In this document: piece by piece, positions 1-36,024 of the stretch
How the letters are laid out: the number at the start of each line of letters is the position of its first letter
Position numbering within the stretch: the first letter of the stretch is position 1
Virus record (IMG/VR): IMGVR_UViG_2563366820_000002
Location: 1 to 47,800 of that record
DNA length: 47,800 nucleotides
Reading direction: 5' to 3' (one strand)
DNA from: a virus
Lineage: Duplodnaviria; Heunggongvirae; Uroviricota; Caudoviricetes
Translations under genes and position numbers: made by a program
The notes under the pieces: generated by a model
What the model was told of the DNA's origin: nothing
Database searches by the model: none
The model's input: the letters and a program-made list of their open reading frames with translations, nothing else

Positions 1-1284
1 TTACTTCTTCGCCTCTGCAACCACTTTGCTACCCACGCCGCGGTTATTGTATTCCCACATGCGGTTGTAGTTAGTGTCATTCAGATTACGCTGTACTTCG
101 TCGTTATCATCAACGTTGCCAGTATTACCCGCAAACGGACGATTGGAAATCACCGCATCGGCCCACGGTTTAGCCGTGTTAAAACCTTCGTTGATGGCGC
201 TATCACGGATCACCACCTGACCGTTGGTATTGGCATCAACATCCAGCGAGCGGCCCAGTTGCGCCACGCCATCACCGGAAGCATTGAAACGGCTGTTTAC
301 GGCGAGGAAACCGTAGTAAATGTTGGACAGCGTAGCCGGTGCAAACACATACGCTTCTTGCTGAGTACGTGAGTTCACCACGCGGAATTCGGTATTATCG
401 AACACCACTGCGCCGCGACCAGAAACGATATCCACATCCCCTTCAATGTAACTGTTGGTCACCAGAGTACGCGGCTGACGGTTGGTTTCTAGACGGTTTT
501 GCACACCACTGTTGGTGACAAAGAAGGTATTCTGACGACCGAGAATGTTGACGTTATTGATCTGCACTTTGTCGCCATCAGTACGCAGTGCCACCGCCGG
601 ATGGTTACCCGCATCTACGCTATCGCCCAGCGTGTTTTCGATGGTCAGGTTTTGCAGTTGCAGGCCATTGTTTTGTGACCAGAAGACCGCAGAGCAGAGA
701 ACGCCGATACTGTCGCTGCGTTTGCTCTGGCAGCTATCGTACATATACCACGCTGGTTTACCTGGCATATATTTGCCGCGCGGGTTGACGTCGTGACGCC
801 AGTCGGCAGGGCTCATGCCCCCATCAAGGGAAAGCCCAATCTTCACATCAATCGGTTTTTCACCTGTACCGTACAGAGTAATTCCACCCGGAGCGGCAGG
901 GACATACACCGTTCCCTGATACTCACCAGGCATCACGGCAATATACTGGCGCTTGTTGGTACGCTTGATAATTGCCGCATCTACCGCCGCCTGAATCGTG
1001 GTATGCGTTACACCTTGAGTACCCGCCGGGCCGACAACAAAGTCAGGTTGCGCAGGCAGGGTAATCGGGGAAGGATTCCACGCTGCAGCACCTGGCGTCA
1101 GGGATGCAAAATAGTGTTGAGCATCGAAATTCTGCGCTTCTTTTGCCGACAGAATCGGGCGAGAAGAGGTACCAGGCGCGGTTTGATCAGAAGGACGTTG
1201 ATCGGGCGGTGTTGAGCTACAGGCGGTCAGCGTCACGCCAAAAGCCAATGCCAGCGCCAGACGGGAAACTGAAAATGTGTTCAC
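1..1284 (-). CDS. ybhC: Host outer-membrane lipoprotein YbhC (pectinesterase-fold putative thioesterase)
   Basis: 427-aa ORF with lipoprotein signal (LTAC) matching my recollection of E. coli YbhC, which flanks lambda attB. Confidence 0.85.
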   Translation of the reverse strand: MNTFSVSRLALALAFGVTLTACSSTPPDQRPSDQTAPGTSSRPILSAKEAQNFDAQHYFASLTPGAAAWNPSPITLPAQPDFVVGPAGTQGVTHTTIQAAVDAAIIKRTNKRQYIAVMPGEYQGTVYVPAAPGGITLYGTGEKPIDVKIGLSLDGGMSPADWRHDVNPRGKYMPGKPAWYMYDSCQSKRSDSIGVLCSAVFWSQNNGLQLQNLTIENTLGDSVDAGNHPAVALRTDGDKVQINNVNILGRQNTFFVTNSGVQNRLETNRQPRTLVTNSYIEGDVDIVSGRGAVVFDNTEFRVVNSRTQQEAYVFAPATLSNIYYGFLAVNSRFNASGDGVAQLGRSLDVDANTNGQVVIRDSAINEGFNTAKPWADAVISNRPFAGNTGNVDDNDEVQRNLNDTNYNRMWEYNNRGVGSKVVAEAKK

Positions 1285-8258: not shown

Positions 8259-9227
8259 TTAGTAGGTTATTTTTGTTGCGAATACTTCGCCTTTTACGAT
8301 GGCTGTTATGATATTTTTAGCAACATCTTCTGATGCGCCAACCTTGATAAGGTCAGCAAGTATTTTGTTATTTACTTCTTTCCGGTGAGCTTTATCCTTT
8401 GCTCTACGCTCTTCTTCGTCCTTGATTCTTTTTTCTTCTGCTATTCTGGCTTGCTCTTTTGCTTCAGCCTCGCGCCGGATTCGTTCAGCCTCCTCCTGTG
8501 CTTTTCGGCGTTCTGCTTCAATTGCCGCATGCTTTTCTCTTTCAGCTCGTTCTGCTGCCTCTTTTGCTTCGCGCTGTGCTCGTTGCTCGGCTTCAATGCG
8601 TTCACGCTCTGCACGTTCCGCTGCGGCCTTAGCTTCTGCTTCTCGCCTTGCTGCTGCTTCAATTTCGGCTTTTGCCTTTGCTTCGGCTTCTGCTCTGGCT
8701 TTCTCTTCAGCTTCTCTTTTTAAGCGTTCTTCATGCTCTCGCTTTTCCTGCTCCGCTTTGAGTCTTGCCTCTTCTCTTTGGCGGTCAAATTCGCGATCCA
8801 TCAAAATCGCTATTTCATGGTCAGACTCAATTTGCTTTGCGAGAGCTTCAGCTGCTGCCTTAGCTTCTTCTTCGGCTTTAATCCGCGCCTGTTCTTCCTC
8901 ATAATCAGTAAGAGGCTGGCGCGCCTTGGCTTTCAGTTCATCAAGGCGATCACGCACTGTCTTGCGGTTGGCATCAATTAGCTTTGGAATTTCCTTCAGT
9001 TCAGCAACAAGGTCTTTGCCAAGACCATCGAGATATGTTTTCGTCTGCGCAACTTTATACGCCAGAGAAGCGATCTCCTTTCTGCCCTTTGCCGTTGTGA
9101 TATCAGGCACAAAGGACATAACTTCACGTTCAACCTTTTGAAGGATTTCTTCAATCTGGTCGGCAGACTGAAATACAGTCATTGCATTTGCTTTTTCAAT
9201 AACAACTAAATCTGTTACTTCACTCAT
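8259..9227 (-). CDS. Hypothetical protein with long Glu/Ala/Lys/Arg-rich predicted coiled-coil, 322 aa
   Basis: ATG at 9227 with AAGGAGG RBS; globular N- and C-terminal parts flank ~130 residues of EAKAKAE/RREAE repeats. Confidence 0.75.
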   Translation of the reverse strand: MSEVTDLVVIEKANAMTVFQSADQIEEILQKVEREVMSFVPDITTAKGRKEIASLAYKVAQTKTYLDGLGKDLVAELKEIPKLIDANRKTVRDRLDELKAKARQPLTDYEEEQARIKAEEEAKAAAEALAKQIESDHEIAILMDREFDRQREEARLKAEQEKREHEERLKREAEEKARAEAEAKAKAEIEAAARREAEAKAAAERAERERIEAEQRAQREAKEAAERAEREKHAAIEAERRKAQEEAERIRREAEAKEQARIAEEKRIKDEEERRAKDKAHRKEVNNKILADLIKVGASEDVAKNIITAIVKGEVFATKITY

Positions 9228-9792: not shown

Positions 9793-9820
9793 CCAAAAAT
9801 AAAGGCCGACTATGCGGCCT
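9793..9820 (-). terminator. Intrinsic terminator after the 149-aa membrane protein gene
   Basis: Hairpin AGGCCG-N5-CGGCCT followed on the minus strand by TTTATTTTT; gene stop at 9825. Confidence 0.65.
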
Positions 9821-9824
9821 GAAA

Positions 9825-10274
9825 TCACTTAACCAATGATGCTGCATATTCGATAAGGTAAAGCTTTGGGGCCAGCCAAATTTTTAACCAAGTCATATTG
9901 GTTACTACACCAATAATAAAAATCCCCCACAGAGTCAAAACTCCAACCAATGGCATGATAAGAAGGTTAATATCTCCTTTGCTATCCCAAACCATTGTCG
10001 GCCTGTATTTGGGATTTCCCCTCTCCCATGAGTATCCTTCATCACCGATTTTACCTGTCTCAACTCTTTGGCACTGCTTCTTCATAAACCAGAAAACCAG
10101 TGGGATTGTTAGAATGGCTATTAATGTTTTAATCAGACTGTCAACCATATTCCATAGCAGCAACTGATGAACAACATCAGGAATCTGCGCTTGGCTGAAT
10201 GAAACAGCCGCGTCTATTCCATTGCTGGCTTTTTGCAGTAGTTCTACGAGAATCTTGTTTGCTTGTTCTTCCAT
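9825..10274 (-). CDS. Membrane protein, 149 aa (possible superinfection-exclusion type)
   Basis: ATG at 10274 with AGGGGA RBS; hydrophobic helices (LIAILTIPLVFWF, LLIMPLVGVLTLWGIFIIGVV); own terminator downstream. Confidence 0.7.
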   Translation of the reverse strand: MEEQANKILVELLQKASNGIDAAVSFSQAQIPDVVHQLLLWNMVDSLIKTLIAILTIPLVFWFMKKQCQRVETGKIGDEGYSWERGNPKYRPTMVWDSKGDINLLIMPLVGVLTLWGIFIIGVVTNMTWLKIWLAPKLYLIEYAASLVK

Positions 10275-10333
10275 ATATCCCCTTGATTGTAATAAGCATG
10301 AAATTATTTACGGCCAAAAAATAAAGGCCACCA

Positions 10334-10534
10334 TCAGGCAGCCTTGTTATTCTGTTTACCAAGTTCTCTGGCAATCATTGCCGTTGTTCGTATTGCCCAT
10401 TTATCGACATATTTCCCATCCTCCATTACAGGAAACATTTCTTCAGGCTTAACCATGCATTCCGATTGCAGCTTGCATCCATTGCATCGCTTGAATTGTC
10501 CACACCATTGATTTTTATCAATAGTCGTAGTCAT
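10334..10534 (-). CDS. Ral-like restriction-alleviation protein, 66 aa
   Basis: Cys-rich CGQFKRCNGCKLQSEC; same length as lambda ral and adjacent to N; assignment from memory and position. Confidence 0.5.
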   Translation of the reverse strand: MTTTIDKNQWCGQFKRCNGCKLQSECMVKPEEMFPVMEDGKYVDKWAIRTTAMIARELGKQNNKAA

Positions 10535-10604
10535 ACGGATAGTCCTGGTATTGTTCCATCACATCCTGCGGATGCTCTTCGAACTCTTCAAATTCTTCTT
10601 CCAT
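10518..10604 (-). CDS. Highly acidic 28-aa peptide ORF (MEEEFEEFEEHPQDVMEQYQDYPYDYDY)
   Basis: ATG at 10604 with GAGGTG RBS 8 nt after the N stop; overlaps the Ral-like start. Confidence 0.4.
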   Translation of the reverse strand: MEEEFEEFEEHPQDVMEQYQDYPYDYDY

Positions 10605-10612
10605 ATCTCACC

Positions 10613-10912
10613 TCAAATAAGTGGTTTGCTGCCTAATTTCATTTTCTGGCGACCAACACAAGTCACACCCATTTCACTGCGTGGCTTGCGGTAGTAAATA
10701 CGGTTCTGTTTACGCTCGACTTCTTCTGCCTTCTTGCAGCGAAGGCCTCCGAGTGATGCTGCTTTATCTGCTCTTACGCAACCAGAGAGCTTTAGCGCAA
10801 TTTTTCGCGCCAGTCTCTGCTCTTGCATTGCCTGTTCACGTTGAGCCTGCCTGCGTGCTCTGCGGCGATTTCTGGTGTTATCGTCAGCCAGATATGTAAT
10901 GACTACTGTCAT
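10613..10912 (-). CDS. N: Antitermination protein N (phage 21-like)
   Basis: Arginine-rich motif NTRNRRRARRQAQREQ near the N-terminus and C-terminus ...GVTCVGRQKMKLGSKPLI resembling lambda N ...GITCSGRQKIKGKSIPLI; GGAGG RBS. Confidence 0.8.
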   Translation of the reverse strand: MTVVITYLADDNTRNRRRARRQAQREQAMQEQRLARKIALKLSGCVRADKAASLGGLRCKKAEEVERKQNRIYYRKPRSEMGVTCVGRQKMKLGSKPLI

Positions 10913-11019
10913 GTTGACCTCCGATGATTGACTTTGGCGGTGACGCGCCGGGTGCTTATCTTCCGGTTGCCGTCGGGCAGCTGCACTTCACGTCACCCCA
11001 AAGCCAACTACTCTTTGGT

Positions 11020-11060
11020 TCCCGCATTTCGGCGGGACAATCCCATCAATGTTAAAGAGC
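11020..11060 (-). promoter_or_regulatory. nutL (boxA GCTCTTTAAC, boxB hairpin)
   Basis: Minus-strand boxA 11051-11060 followed by boxB UCCCGC-CGAAAU-GCGGGA at 11020-11037; boxB is identical to the one at nutR. Confidence 0.75.
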
Positions 11061-11104
11061 CTGCCAATCTGTTCCGTTTGGCTACCAGCGTCCTGCTGAT
11101 GGCT

Positions 11105-11195
11105 AAAGAATACTGTAGGTATTTTATTGTGTAAATACCCAAGGTATTTATTTTTGATGAAATAATGATAAACAAATGAATACAAAGGATATTTA
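11105..11195 (-). promoter_or_regulatory. pL promoter with OL operators
   Basis: Minus-strand -35 TTTACA (11130-11135), 17-bp spacer, -10 TATTCT (11107-11112); 15-bp AATAC-N5-GTATT sites at 11109-11123 and 11134-11148, weaker at 11179-11193. Confidence 0.65.
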
Positions 11196-11279
11196 TTTTT
11201 TCGGTGTCTGCTTGTTCAGTGCTTTTTATGCGGGATATGTGAAGTGGATCCCGATAGCTATTGCTGCCGGGATTATGGG

Positions 11280-11648
11280 TTAGTCAGCGAAGGTTAAGAC
11301 GAGAATTACCTTAATGATGTCTGCTACAACAGACACGGCCATAGATAAACCAAAGACGATCCAAGCCATAGAGATGTCTTCACTACCATCGTATAGAGTT
11401 CCGTAATCACTGGTGTAAGGCGTAAATGTCGCGCCTTGATACAATAGGTATAAGCTTGATCCATAGAGGATAAATGCAGATATCCCTTGTATTGCTATGA
11501 TCACCAGAATCATGAAACGAGCTGATCTATGCGCCCAAGCCTGGCTTATTTTTTCTGATAGAGATTTCGCAATAAAAGCATGCGCTAAGCCGTAAATTGT
11601 CGATATTGCCAACATCCCCAAAAAGCTTGCTATAGCGGTTCCAACCAT
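11280..11648 (-). CDS. Membrane protein, 122 aa, downstream of cI in the lambda rexAB slot
   Basis: ATG at 11648 with AAGGGG RBS 17 nt after the cI stop (track start 11669 is TTG); three predicted transmembrane helices. Confidence 0.7.
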   Translation of the reverse strand: MVGTAIASFLGMLAISTIYGLAHAFIAKSLSEKISQAWAHRSARFMILVIIAIQGISAFILYGSSLYLLYQGATFTPYTSDYGTLYDGSEDISMAWIVFGLSMAVSVVADIIKVILVLTFAD

Positions 11649-11665
11649 ATTCGCCCCTTGCGTGA

Positions 11666-12382
11666 TCAAACCAGCCTTAGTTTTGTCTCAATTGCAACGC
11701 CTATAATCTTGCAGTTTCCATTGATTGGCACGAGAGGCCATGCAGGATTAAGTCCCTTGAGGTATTTATTCCCGCCGTCGATTATCAGCTTCTTGAATGT
11801 TGCTTCGTTAGAGTCAGAAAGTTTTGCTATGACCAAGCTGCCGTTGATCGCCTCCCTTCCGGTATCGAAAAGAACGAATGTTCCCTCTGGAATGCTTAAC
11901 CCAACCGGTGCCGTCATTGAATCACCTTCCACTTTAAGCCAGAACGCATTACCTTGAATATGCGCGTCAGACTCAAGCCAAACATCTATGTCTTTAATGG
12001 TGTATGGTTCGCATGCTTCACACCACGAGCCAGCCTGGATACTGCTTAACACCGGATACCTCTTTCCTGCTCTGTATTCCCCTGCATACCTTACGTTGGC
12101 ATCGCTCTTAAGGCTTTCTGCCTGTTCTGCAACCTTGGCAGCAATTGACTGGCTAAAATCAGCAATTGAGACTTGCAACAATCGTGCAAAACCAGATGCA
12201 ACCTCAACGTTTAGCGCGTTTCTGCCATTAAGATAATGCCCTACCGCTCCTTGGGTGATACCCAGTTCATCAGCAATTGAATATTGGGTTATTCCCAATT
12301 CTTTCTTTTTTGACTCATACAAAGCCTTAAGCCGCTTAGCGTCTTCGAGCTGTTCTGTCGTCAGTGATTTTTTATTTTCCAT
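11666..12382 (-). CDS. cI: CI repressor (HTH plus S24 LexA-like autopeptidase domain)
   Basis: 238 aa; N-terminus LTTEQLEDAKRLKALYESKKKELGITQ parallels lambda CI; C-terminal domain has GDSM and FKKL catalytic motifs; divergent from cro. Confidence 0.9.
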   Translation of the reverse strand: MENKKSLTTEQLEDAKRLKALYESKKKELGITQYSIADELGITQGAVGHYLNGRNALNVEVASGFARLLQVSIADFSQSIAAKVAEQAESLKSDANVRYAGEYRAGKRYPVLSSIQAGSWCEACEPYTIKDIDVWLESDAHIQGNAFWLKVEGDSMTAPVGLSIPEGTFVLFDTGREAINGSLVIAKLSDSNEATFKKLIIDGGNKYLKGLNPAWPLVPINGNCKIIGVAIETKLRLV

Positions 12383-34037: not shown

Positions 34038-34252
34038 AGTACCCGTTCATGGAAGAGGAGACTCTTCCGGCAAAACTCGTTCGCCCCGTAAACGTCACAC
34101 CATCAATGAACGCCATTATCTGTTCAGGAAAAGCCACTTATACCGATTTGCAGGAACGGTTATCTGTTCGTGATATGTATAACCTTCTGGAAATTATCTC
34201 GGTGGAATCATTTAACAAGCGGGTCTGGAATAAACATCAGGAGCAGCGATGA
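34013..34252 (+). other. Programmed -1 frameshift site and extension ORF of the tail assembly chaperone
   Basis: Zero-frame gaT TTT TTA at 34013-34019 is an X_XXY_YYZ slippery site; -1 frame stays open to 34252, overlapping the tape measure start. Confidence 0.65.
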
Positions 34253-36024
34253 TTATCAATGAGTTGGCCTACAAGGTCACAATTAAGGCCGATGAATTCC
34301 TGAATGGAAAACGGAAAGTAAAGCAGGAAGCACAAGACCTTAAAAACGAAATAGAGAGATCTTCATCTGCGATAGAAAGGTCAACAACCTCCTCAATGTC
34401 CAAAACGGCTAAGGAGACCGACAAAGCTGCTGTTGCAATGAAAGGGTTGACTGCTTCATTTAATGGATTTTTGGGGCTTTCGACACGCTTTGTGGCTGTT
34501 GGCGGTGTGTTGACAGCCGTAGCCATTGGCATTCACCGTGCATTTGAAAGTACTTCGGAGTCAATTGTAAGAGCCAGTAATATGGGGAGAATGCTTGGAA
34601 CAAGCGCCAGTAACGTTCTTGGTACTCAGTATGGATTCTCTCGAATTGGTCAGAACGGCGGCGCGTTCCTTGGGGCTCAGATGAGCGCCAGGATGGCGCT
34701 TTCCAATATAGAAGACCCAACAATTTTCGGCGGACTTACACCGGAGGCTCAGAATTTACTAACAACTGGAGCGAGAACAGGCATTGATATTAGTAAGCTT
34801 GGAGGTAAATCTGAAGATGCTCTGGCGGAATTTCAGAAATATGGGAAGAACCATAACGAGAAACAGTTAATGCAAGTGCTTTCTGCTTTTGGTTATGACC
34901 CTAATCTTGCCGGGGATATTAAAAGCGGAAAAGCTGTGCAGATGGTATCTGAGGAAGAGAAACGATGGCAGATGACCAAAGAGCAGGAAGAAGCACAGCG
35001 TAATATTCTTGCTACGACTAAAGCCCTTGACTCGCAATTTGCTCAGGTTAAACAAGAACTAATGGCTACATTTGGCCCTGAAGTGCTTAAAGCAGAACAG
35101 GAGTTTTTAGAGTGGCTGAAAAACAACAAGGGTGACATTGTTGGGTTCTTCAGGAACCTGAGTACAGGTATTGATGGTTTTGTTAAAGCCGTTGGTGGCG
35201 CTGGAAACGCATTGGGCATTCTTGCTGCCATGGCTCTTCTTAGCGGCAAGGGGTTAGGAAGCAAGCTGGGCTTAATCGGTACGATTGGTGTTTTGGGGCA
35301 GATGGTACAAGACCAGTATAAAGATGTTCCTGATGCACAAAGGCCTTGGTTTTTTCAGCAGCACTGGTTCGAAAGATTATTCAATATTGAATATGAAGAT
35401 CCAAATCAGGATATACCAACAAATCCATCAGGAAAAACAAGAGCGGATAGAAACTTCAACCCATTAAATCTTAGAACTAAAGGTAATGCAGGTAGGGATT
35501 CTGGAGGGTTTGCGAAGTACACTGATGATGAGTCAGGATGGGAAGCAGCAAGAAGGCAATTATCTCTGTATTACACAAGAGATAAACTTAACACTATAAA
35601 CGGTATTATTACGAAATGGGCTCCACCTTCAGAAAACGATACCGCCTCATACATAAAGCAAGTTTCTAAGGCAATGGGGGTTGATGCAAATGAAAAACTC
35701 GACCTTTCAGACCCGTCTGTTATGGCTAAATTAAGTTCCTACATGGCACGACATGAAGGTTATTCAAATTGGAAGCGGGGTCTTGATTATGGTAACCCAA
35801 CGAAAAATAGCAATGCCGCGTACTACCAAACCCAGCAAAGATTGGCTAATGGATCTGCAAACCAATCCTATGCCCAGAGCGTTGTTAACAATTACAACAG
35901 CCAGCACATAGGAGAGGTAAAGGTAATTGCCAAAACGGATCAATCCTCAAAACTAACAGAAGGATTTAAGGAGTTGAATCGCAGATCATCAGTAAACCAG
36001 GCATTTTCAAGTGGTGTTAGATAG
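34249..36024 (+). CDS. Tail tape measure protein
   Basis: 591 aa, Gly/Ala-rich with a hydrophobic segment, follows the frameshifted chaperone pair. Confidence 0.7.
   Translation: MIINELAYKVTIKADEFLNGKRKVKQEAQDLKNEIERSSSAIERSTTSSMSKTAKETDKAAVAMKGLTASFNGFLGLSTRFVAVGGVLTAVAIGIHRAFESTSESIVRASNMGRMLGTSASNVLGTQYGFSRIGQNGGAFLGAQMSARMALSNIEDPTIFGGLTPEAQNLLTTGARTGIDISKLGGKSEDALAEFQKYGKNHNEKQLMQVLSAFGYDPNLAGDIKSGKAVQMVSEEEKRWQMTKEQEEAQRNILATTKALDSQFAQVKQELMATFGPEVLKAEQEFLEWLKNNKGDIVGFFRNLSTGIDGFVKAVGGAGNALGILAAMALLSGKGLGSKLGLIGTIGVLGQMVQDQYKDVPDAQRPWFFQQHWFERLFNIEYEDPNQDIPTNPSGKTRADRNFNPLNLRTKGNAGRDSGGFAKYTDDESGWEAARRQLSLYYTRDKLNTINGIITKWAPPSENDTASYIKQVSKAMGVDANEKLDLSDPSVMAKLSSYMARHEGYSNWKRGLDYGNPTKNSNAAYYQTQQRLANGSANQSYAQSVVNNYNSQHIGEVKVIAKTDQSSKLTEGFKELNRRSSVNQAFSSGVR

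Follow-up and report, generated by a model that had tools for sequence, protein, structure and literature searches.

Cross-genus conservation of lambda orf28, a hyper-acidic 28-codon reading frame that overlaps ral

Does the very short and strongly acidic open reading frame that precedes the phage restriction alleviation gene ral, and runs into it, specify a peptide under selection, and if so, what might so small a product contribute beside Ral? Lambda is the best-studied phage. Its annotation has nonetheless listed this frame, orf28, as a 'hypothetical protein' for four decades, next to a gene, ral, whose product acts by a mechanism that is only partly understood. The frame was analysed in a window consisting of the whole 47,800-nucleotide stretch (positions 1 to 47,800) of the IMG/VR record IMGVR_UViG_2563366820_000002, a virus of the Caudoviricetes, and was then compared with its counterparts in lambda, in other phages and in bacterial prophages.

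The frame between N and ral

All elements of the locus lie on the minus strand of the window. The orf28 coding sequence occupies 10604..10518 (28 codons followed by TGA) and specifies the peptide MEEEFEEFEEHPQDVMEQYQDYPYDYDY. It is preceded by a gene for an N-like antiterminator of 99 aa (10912..10613; phrog_271, E 1e-35, and a weak match to PF25694), which in alignment with phage 21 is of the phage-21 type over its C-terminal two-thirds and differs in its arginine-rich N-terminus. Only 8 nt (10612-10605) separate the N stop codon (TGA, 10615-10613) from the ATG of orf28 (10604-10602), and a Shine-Dalgarno (SD) element, GAGGTG (10614-10609), takes in the final two bases of the N stop codon and lies 4 nt 5' of the ATG. 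Downstream, ral (10534..10334; Pfam PF11058, E 1.6e-48) codes for a restriction alleviation protein of 66 aa that is identical to lambda Ral. The two genes share 17 nt (10534-10518), with the ral ATG 14 nt upstream of the orf28 stop codon, and a weak SD element for ral, AGGA (10543..10546), is contained within orf28 codons Gln20-Asp21, 8 nt before the ral ATG. A terminator-like hairpin with a T-run (10324..10345), recognized by consensus match only, straddles the ral stop codon.

These coordinates bear out an earlier, sequence-only reading of the locus, which had placed the frame directly after N, assigned it a GAGGTG ribosome-binding site and let its 3' end overlap the start of a Ral-like gene. 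That reading also described the product as half acidic and a quarter aromatic; the second figure is correct (7/28 residues are Phe or Tyr, 25%) and the first is slightly generous (12/28 are acidic, 43%). The calculated charge of the peptide is about -12 and its pI about 4. As an open frame, orf28 could by itself have arisen by chance, the 3.5 kb between 9000 and 12500 being overlapped by 56 ORFs of 20 aa or more, and the case for orf28 above chance rests on a signature of purifying selection across genera that is specific to its frame.

Other genes in the vicinity, likewise on the minus strand, drew attention in their own right. A predicted membrane protein of 149 aa is encoded just after ral (9825-10274; phrog_3054, no assigned function), and a protein of 129 aa encoded between N and cI (11280-11669), by eye a multi-pass membrane protein, occupies the place of lambda rexAB; both may be products of exclusion or lysogenic-conversion genes. 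Downstream of ea10, a protein of 322 aa (8259-9227) has a very long, Glu/Lys/Ala/Arg-rich and coiled-coil-like central region.

By sequence identity, the frame corresponds to the lambda gene orf28, which is already known and still without an assigned function. The peptide is 100% identical to that of lambda orf28 (lambdap47, NP_040623.1; GenBank AAA96576.1), and the DNA differs by a single synonymous change (CCG/CCT at Pro12). The SD and start context is also the same, and in the lambda reference record orf28 (34271-34357) and ral (34087-34287) likewise overlap by 17 nt. The peptide matches PHROG 16060 (phrog_16060; E 7.1e-19, over 1-28 of 28 profile positions), to which no function is assigned, and it matched no Pfam or NCBIfam family and no PDB chain, even at E values up to 1-10. 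In a literature search, no paper found assigned a function to lambda orf28. The gene is mentioned as part of an engineered deletion (PMC2327257), and a genome-wide CRISPRi screen of lambda classed it as non-essential, its knock-down having no plaque phenotype (PMC10695390), a result to be expected of an accessory gene and one that gives no hint of function.

The exact orf28 sequence is present in public databases on 182 contigs (AAA96576.1 and other accessions), and a search with 137 nt that span it gave matches in 946 of 5,426 complete E. coli genomes (17%). In these genomes the NCBI PGAP pipeline does not call the frame, and the annotation at the site is limited to Ral, N and, in some cases, a hypothetical protein. 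A scan of bacterial genome contigs returned 24 matches, 21 of them carrying a lambda-type Ral (95-100% identical), and only the match in Kluyvera genomosp. 1 was informative. The lambda-type matches, in which Ral is for the most part 100% identical, lie mainly on short or low-coverage contigs of Pseudoxanthomonas, Nocardioides, Paenibacillus, Shewanella, Bradyrhizobium, Enterococcus and others; these occurrences on unrelated bacterial contigs are almost certainly lambda DNA contamination of species-representative assemblies.

Upstream of orf28 the window and lambda part company. In the window the gene directly follows a 21-type N, at a distance of 8 nt, whereas lambda and P22 have sieB between the two genes. 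Immediately upstream of orf28, the DNA of lambda and P22 (TTTACTACCGCAATCCAC then TATTTAAGGTG) resembles the 3' end of a 21-type N gene, with a match of 17/18 nt that was reached by 0/1000 shuffles (window 10613-10700, minus strand, against lambda extract ~959-1000, minus strand). This DNA is a relic of the 21-type N 3' end, intact in the window, that has undergone a deletion of ~60 nt, and the order N(21-type)-orf28-ral therefore looks ancestral and the sieB/N arrangement of lambda derived. Another upstream variant is seen in some Stx-type phages, in which TGG or some other sense codon replaces the in-frame TGA that lies two codons upstream of the orf28 ATG. This opens an N-terminally extended form of 50-60 aa (MNYLEFPDGSLFWQQTTYLRWDMEEEF...) that gene callers annotate (e.g. 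phage phi296, locus extract 1775-1864).

Selection on the orf28 frame

The close relatives in E. coli and Salmonella are too similar to judge coding status, and diverged ral loci were used instead. Homologues were located both via ral and via a back-translated DNA pattern of orf28; the pattern admits only synonymous variants in codons 4-15, and population counts based on it were used only outside these codons or were taken from the ral-anchored set. Diverged copies of orf28 sit upstream of ral genes that are 61-80% identical, in prophages of Salmonella, Cronobacter, Kluyvera, Pantoea, Erwinia, Providencia and Proteus. In P22 (Ral 74% identical) the orf28 peptide is the same as that of the window, in BTP1 it reads MEEEFEEFDEHPQDVMNQYQEYPYGYDY, and the Cronobacter peptide ends in YPYEYDY. 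The Kluyvera peptide, which begins at a GTG, is EDEFDEHPDDDMSRYQDYPYDH, and those of Pantoea and Erwinia are MDEEEFDEHPADDMSQYQDYPYEFDY and MEEFDQHPDDDMSQYQDYRYEY, respectively. Providencia carries MEDDIEEFDEHPDDDMSQYQDYPYEYDY, Proteus the same peptide except for H26 and with either ATG or GTG as start, and P. rettgeri MEKDIEEFDEHPDDDMRQYQDYPYECDY, terminated by TAA and not TGA.

Through all this divergence the organization of the frame is retained. Its length variants (22, 23, 26 and 28 codons) are all in frame, the start swaps between ATG and GTG, and the stop swaps between TGA and TAA at an unchanged position. An SD-like element (GAGGTG, AAGGGG or GAGGT) precedes every start despite unrelated sequence further upstream. 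At the other end, orf28 terminates 8-14 nt beyond the ral ATG in 13/13 loci, the overlap being 17 nt in 11 of the 13 and 11 nt in Kluyvera and Erwinia. The sequence-only reading had counted a lack of conservation of the frame in related phages among the things that would speak against its proposal; the frame proves to be kept across at least nine genera.

Substitutions among the diverged copies are distributed as in a coding sequence read in this frame. Over codons 2-23, the portion upstream of the ral ATG, 5 of 22 columns vary at codon position 1, 6 at position 2 and 19 at position 3. The pooled Nei-Gojobori pN/pS over the same codons is 0.18 in the orf28 frame, as opposed to 4.3 and 1.3 in the other forward frames, a noisy estimate that draws on ~6-7 independent diverged lineages with ~8-9 synonymous sites per comparison and some pS values >1. 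Antisense coding was considered and rejected, the two stop-free antisense frames having pN/pS of 1.7 and 2.6; the sole other frame with a low ratio (0.25) is antisense and contains 2-5 stop codons in every sequence. Residues E7, F8, H11, P12, D14, Y19 and Y22 never change while their wobble bases do, and M16 is likewise constant. Among the ~200 near-identical loci of E. coli and Salmonella (199, from IMG/VR and other sources), the common polymorphisms are synonymous (Pro12 CCT/CCG/CCC/CCA, Pro23 CCG/CCT/CCA, Tyr22 TAT/TAC) and replacements are rare. The last third of the peptide (QYQDYPY-x-x-DY) is encoded by bases that also carry the SD and start codon of ral and specify the N-terminus of Ral, which confounds its conservation.

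These patterns make it very probable that orf28 is a real, selected coding gene, and the cross-genus conservation of the frame supports the earlier proposal that a true small gene, equipped with a ribosome-binding site, lies here. Since residues remain invariant while their wobble bases change, there is also a strong case that the peptide sequence itself is selected and not merely the act of translating it. It could be argued instead that a purine-rich spacer happens to be open in this frame and is conserved by recent ancestry or on account of a cis-acting DNA or RNA element such as a terminator, a processing site or a leader of ral. Most copies in E. coli and Salmonella are indeed >95% identical in DNA, enough for descent alone to preserve a frame, the region is rich in ORFs of 20 codons or more (56 in 3.5 kb), and PGAP passes this one over. 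This explanation is already disfavoured, and we consider it highly improbable: synonymous change is close to saturation in the distant copies, where frame, SD, start and stop nonetheless persist despite in-frame indels, and the three-base periodicity (19 variable columns versus 5 and 6) and low pN/pS single out the orf28 frame alone among the stop-free frames. An RNA element in particular was set aside, as a search of 9800-11400 against Rfam gave no match (a meaningless scaRNA match arose elsewhere) and the fold of the alignment was of negligible energy and without covariation.

Linkage and possible coupling to ral

In each of the 116 pattern-found loci with enough downstream sequence, the gene following orf28 is ral or a ral remnant. 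The upstream contexts of the pair vary (21-type N, the lambda/P22 sieB side and others), and the break in mosaic homology falls ~15-25 nt upstream of the orf28 ATG, before its ribosome-binding site, and never between orf28 and ral. Judged by these breakpoints, the comparison shows orf28 and ral to form a single mobile module in the early-left (pL) operon. The possibility that the acidic peptide binds the Arg-rich motif of N was discarded, as sieB separates orf28 from N in lambda and P22 and orf28 travels with ral.

The translation signals of the two genes differ in strength. The anti-SD duplex predicted for orf28 is -6.9 kcal/mol in the window and between -6.9 and -11.8 kcal/mol in 12 of 13 loci, the exception being P22 (GAGATG, -3.2 kcal/mol), and that of ral is about -4 kcal/mol in every orf28-bearing locus (-4.0 in the window); orf28 has the stronger SD in 12/13. 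Within orf28, Gln20, whose codon supplies the AGGA, is CAG in 13/13 sequences, whereas Gln18 alternates between CAA and CAG, which indicates that the ral SD is under constraint at the nucleotide level.

The converse arrangement, ral without orf28, occurs in three lineages, and in these the start of ral differs. Phage GZMU_E2010 provides ral with its own stronger SD, GAGAGGA; in a Citrobacter-type prophage, ral overlaps another ORF, of 66 aa, by ATGA; and in Kluyvera georgiana the GTG start of ral sits exactly on the orf28 SD/start site of Kluyvera genomosp. 1 (GAGGTGAGAT-GTG). K. georgiana carries a clean natural deletion of orf28 that re-uses the orf28 translation start for Ral. From the three lineages it follows that Ral is not strictly dependent on orf28. 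The ral gene of Kluyvera genomosp. 1, for its part, appears frameshifted near its 3' end.

The sequence-only reading took the overlap of the two genes to suggest translational coupling. The conserved overlap and the stronger upstream SD both speak for this proposal, and the geometry fits coupling by termination and re-initiation or by local delivery of ribosomes. In a single-sequence fold, the region around the orf28 AUG is paired with that around the ral AUG (z = -2.15), but common variants break these pairs, and the alignment revealed no conserved RNA structure masking the ral start (alignment fold -4.5 kcal/mol, covariation term ~0), so that a form of coupling in which translation of orf28 opens such a structure finds no support in these folds. 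Weighing these points, we lean slightly towards translational coupling of orf28 to ral.

Natural inactivation of ral offers another view of the pair. A recurrent dead ral allele, present in ~10% of orf28 loci in IMG/VR, has lost ~100 nt internally between GGRCAAT repeats, a loss that shifts the frame and leaves a stub of 18 aa (MTTTIDKNQWCGQYERRQ and a stop). The orf28 frame is open in 26/26 ral-deleted loci, which were retrieved independently of orf28. Amino-acid changes in orf28, mostly in the overlap region, are nevertheless found in 10 of these 26 loci versus ~5 of 83 ral-intact loci, an excess that hints at relaxed rather than independent constraint, the loci being phylogenetically non-independent.

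What the peptide may do

The explanation that we favour, and hold to be probable on the whole, is that orf28 is a translated gene for a hyper-acidic micro-protein that forms a module with ral, is co-made with Ral and acts in trans. Ribosomes would enter at the orf28 site, the stronger of the two, stop 14 nt beyond the ral ATG and feed the weak ral start (AGGA, about -4 kcal/mol), such that both products are made together, and the peptide would then act within the Ral pathway, either by partnering or modulating Ral, which is a basic protein, or as a polyanionic decoy for a DNA-binding surface of the type IA restriction-modification complex. That the peptide has some function in trans is, taken alone, also rather probable; that this function is related to restriction is a tentative suggestion, and the occurrence of ral without orf28 in three lineages speaks against it. 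An AlphaFold2 (AF2) single-sequence model, built on a natural 32-aa variant of orf28 and of low confidence (mean pLDDT 73, pTM 0.29), places orf28 residues 1-10 and 12-20 in two helices, leaves the tail unstructured and suggests an acidic helix, a His-Pro hinge, a second helix and a disordered, acidic, Tyr-rich tail, DYPYDYDY. [quoted passage not shown] In one study, alleviation was slight or absent when a plasmid supplied Ral alone (PMC9410887), from a construct that may or may not carry orf28, an outcome that is compatible with a missing partner and far from proof of one.

One alternative is a purely cis-acting leader, in which translation of orf28 only sets the translation rate of ral and the product has no function in trans. 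In one variant, the N-terminal run of Glu and Asp might serve as an 'intrinsic ribosome destabilisation' (IRD) sequence, as in MgtL, and expression of ral would then depend on ribosome stability, that is, on Mg2+, the ABC-F factor EttA or the energy state. Stretches rich in D, E and P at the N-terminus abort or pause translation, EttA relieves such arrest within the first 30 residues, and translation of aceA depends on that of aceB upstream (bioRxiv 10.1101/2021.02.02.429294; PMC11282234). Like the MgtL leader and aceB-aceA, orf28 is a short ORF with an acidic N-terminus and a stronger SD of its own that ends by or over the next start. The stretch MEEEFEEFEE, with 7 acidic residues among positions 2-10, is D/E/P-rich within the first ~10 residues, and changes in the N-terminal half are mostly Glu/Asp exchanges that keep acidity rather than exact sequence. 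A leader acting by composition only would not explain the invariant non-acidic residues F8, H11, P12, M16, Y19 and Y22, however, and it is at these positions that orf28 departs from MgtL and aceB-aceA, its peptide itself being selected and any regulation by it hypothetical. In Erwinia and Kluyvera the acidic run is much shorter, bulky residues, which here include F5 and F8, reportedly work against IRD (bioRxiv 10.1101/2021.02.02.429294), and the ral start lacks a conserved masking structure. We therefore regard the leader as unlikely, the coupling-type geometry and upstream SD strength notwithstanding.

The remaining contender takes up the suggestion of a DNA mimic made in the sequence-only reading, a guess from charge and neighbourhood, and casts orf28 as a stand-alone mimic whose carboxylates would imitate the DNA backbone and block the DNA-binding site of type I or other restriction or defence enzymes independently of Ral. 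The low pI and net charge of the peptide, its constant place beside ral in an early operon and the weak effect of plasmid-borne Ral alone are in keeping with it, and the open orf28 frames of the ral-deleted loci are compatible with a ral-independent role. T7 Ocr, plasmid ArdA and T7 gp5.9 are, like orf28, very acidic, early-expressed and encoded beside or among anti-restriction functions. Known DNA mimics are folded domains of at least ~50 residues, and the smallest established one is, to our knowledge, T7 gp5.9, at 52 aa; orf28 is about half that size and, with 28 residues, far below the known mimics. Compared with Ocr, ArdA and gp5.9 it is two to six times smaller, is without sequence or profile similarity to them and has a model (two short helices and a floppy tail) of too low a confidence, for so small a peptide, to reveal a fold that presents charges with B-DNA-like spacing. 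The excess of replacements in ral-deleted loci, as counted among non-independent loci, also hints against independence from Ral. For these reasons a DNA mimic seems quite unlikely.

A more ambitious reading, which we put forward only as a long shot, would make orf28 the smallest known anti-defence effector, an acidic Tyr-rich peptide that works with Ral or independently of it. Ral might depend on it as an obligatory cofactor on HsdM/HsdS, or it might be a decoy for DNA or ssDNA surfaces in the manner of the acidic tails of SSB-type proteins. There is a precedent for so small a product in T4 Stp, a peptide of 26 residues that modulates the type IC enzyme EcoprrI. As a phage peptide of <30 residues acting on a type I complex, Stp illustrates that this size class can do the job, although it is not known to be acidic or related to orf28 in sequence. 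If the effector reading were true, it would explain both the selection on the peptide across the Enterobacterales and the constant position of orf28 beside ral.

The existence of orf28 in lambda was already known; what the present comparison adds is that the gene is very probably selected and stays with ral across at least nine genera. It is a gene easily overlooked. PGAP leaves it uncalled although 17% of complete E. coli genomes carry it, and tryptic proteomics would probably miss it because the peptide is without Lys or Arg. Depending on which of the above possibilities holds, orf28 could serve Ral as a cofactor, regulate its synthesis or represent a new class of very small peptides directed against defences, and the comparative evidence turns it from annotation noise into a concrete and cheap experimental target.
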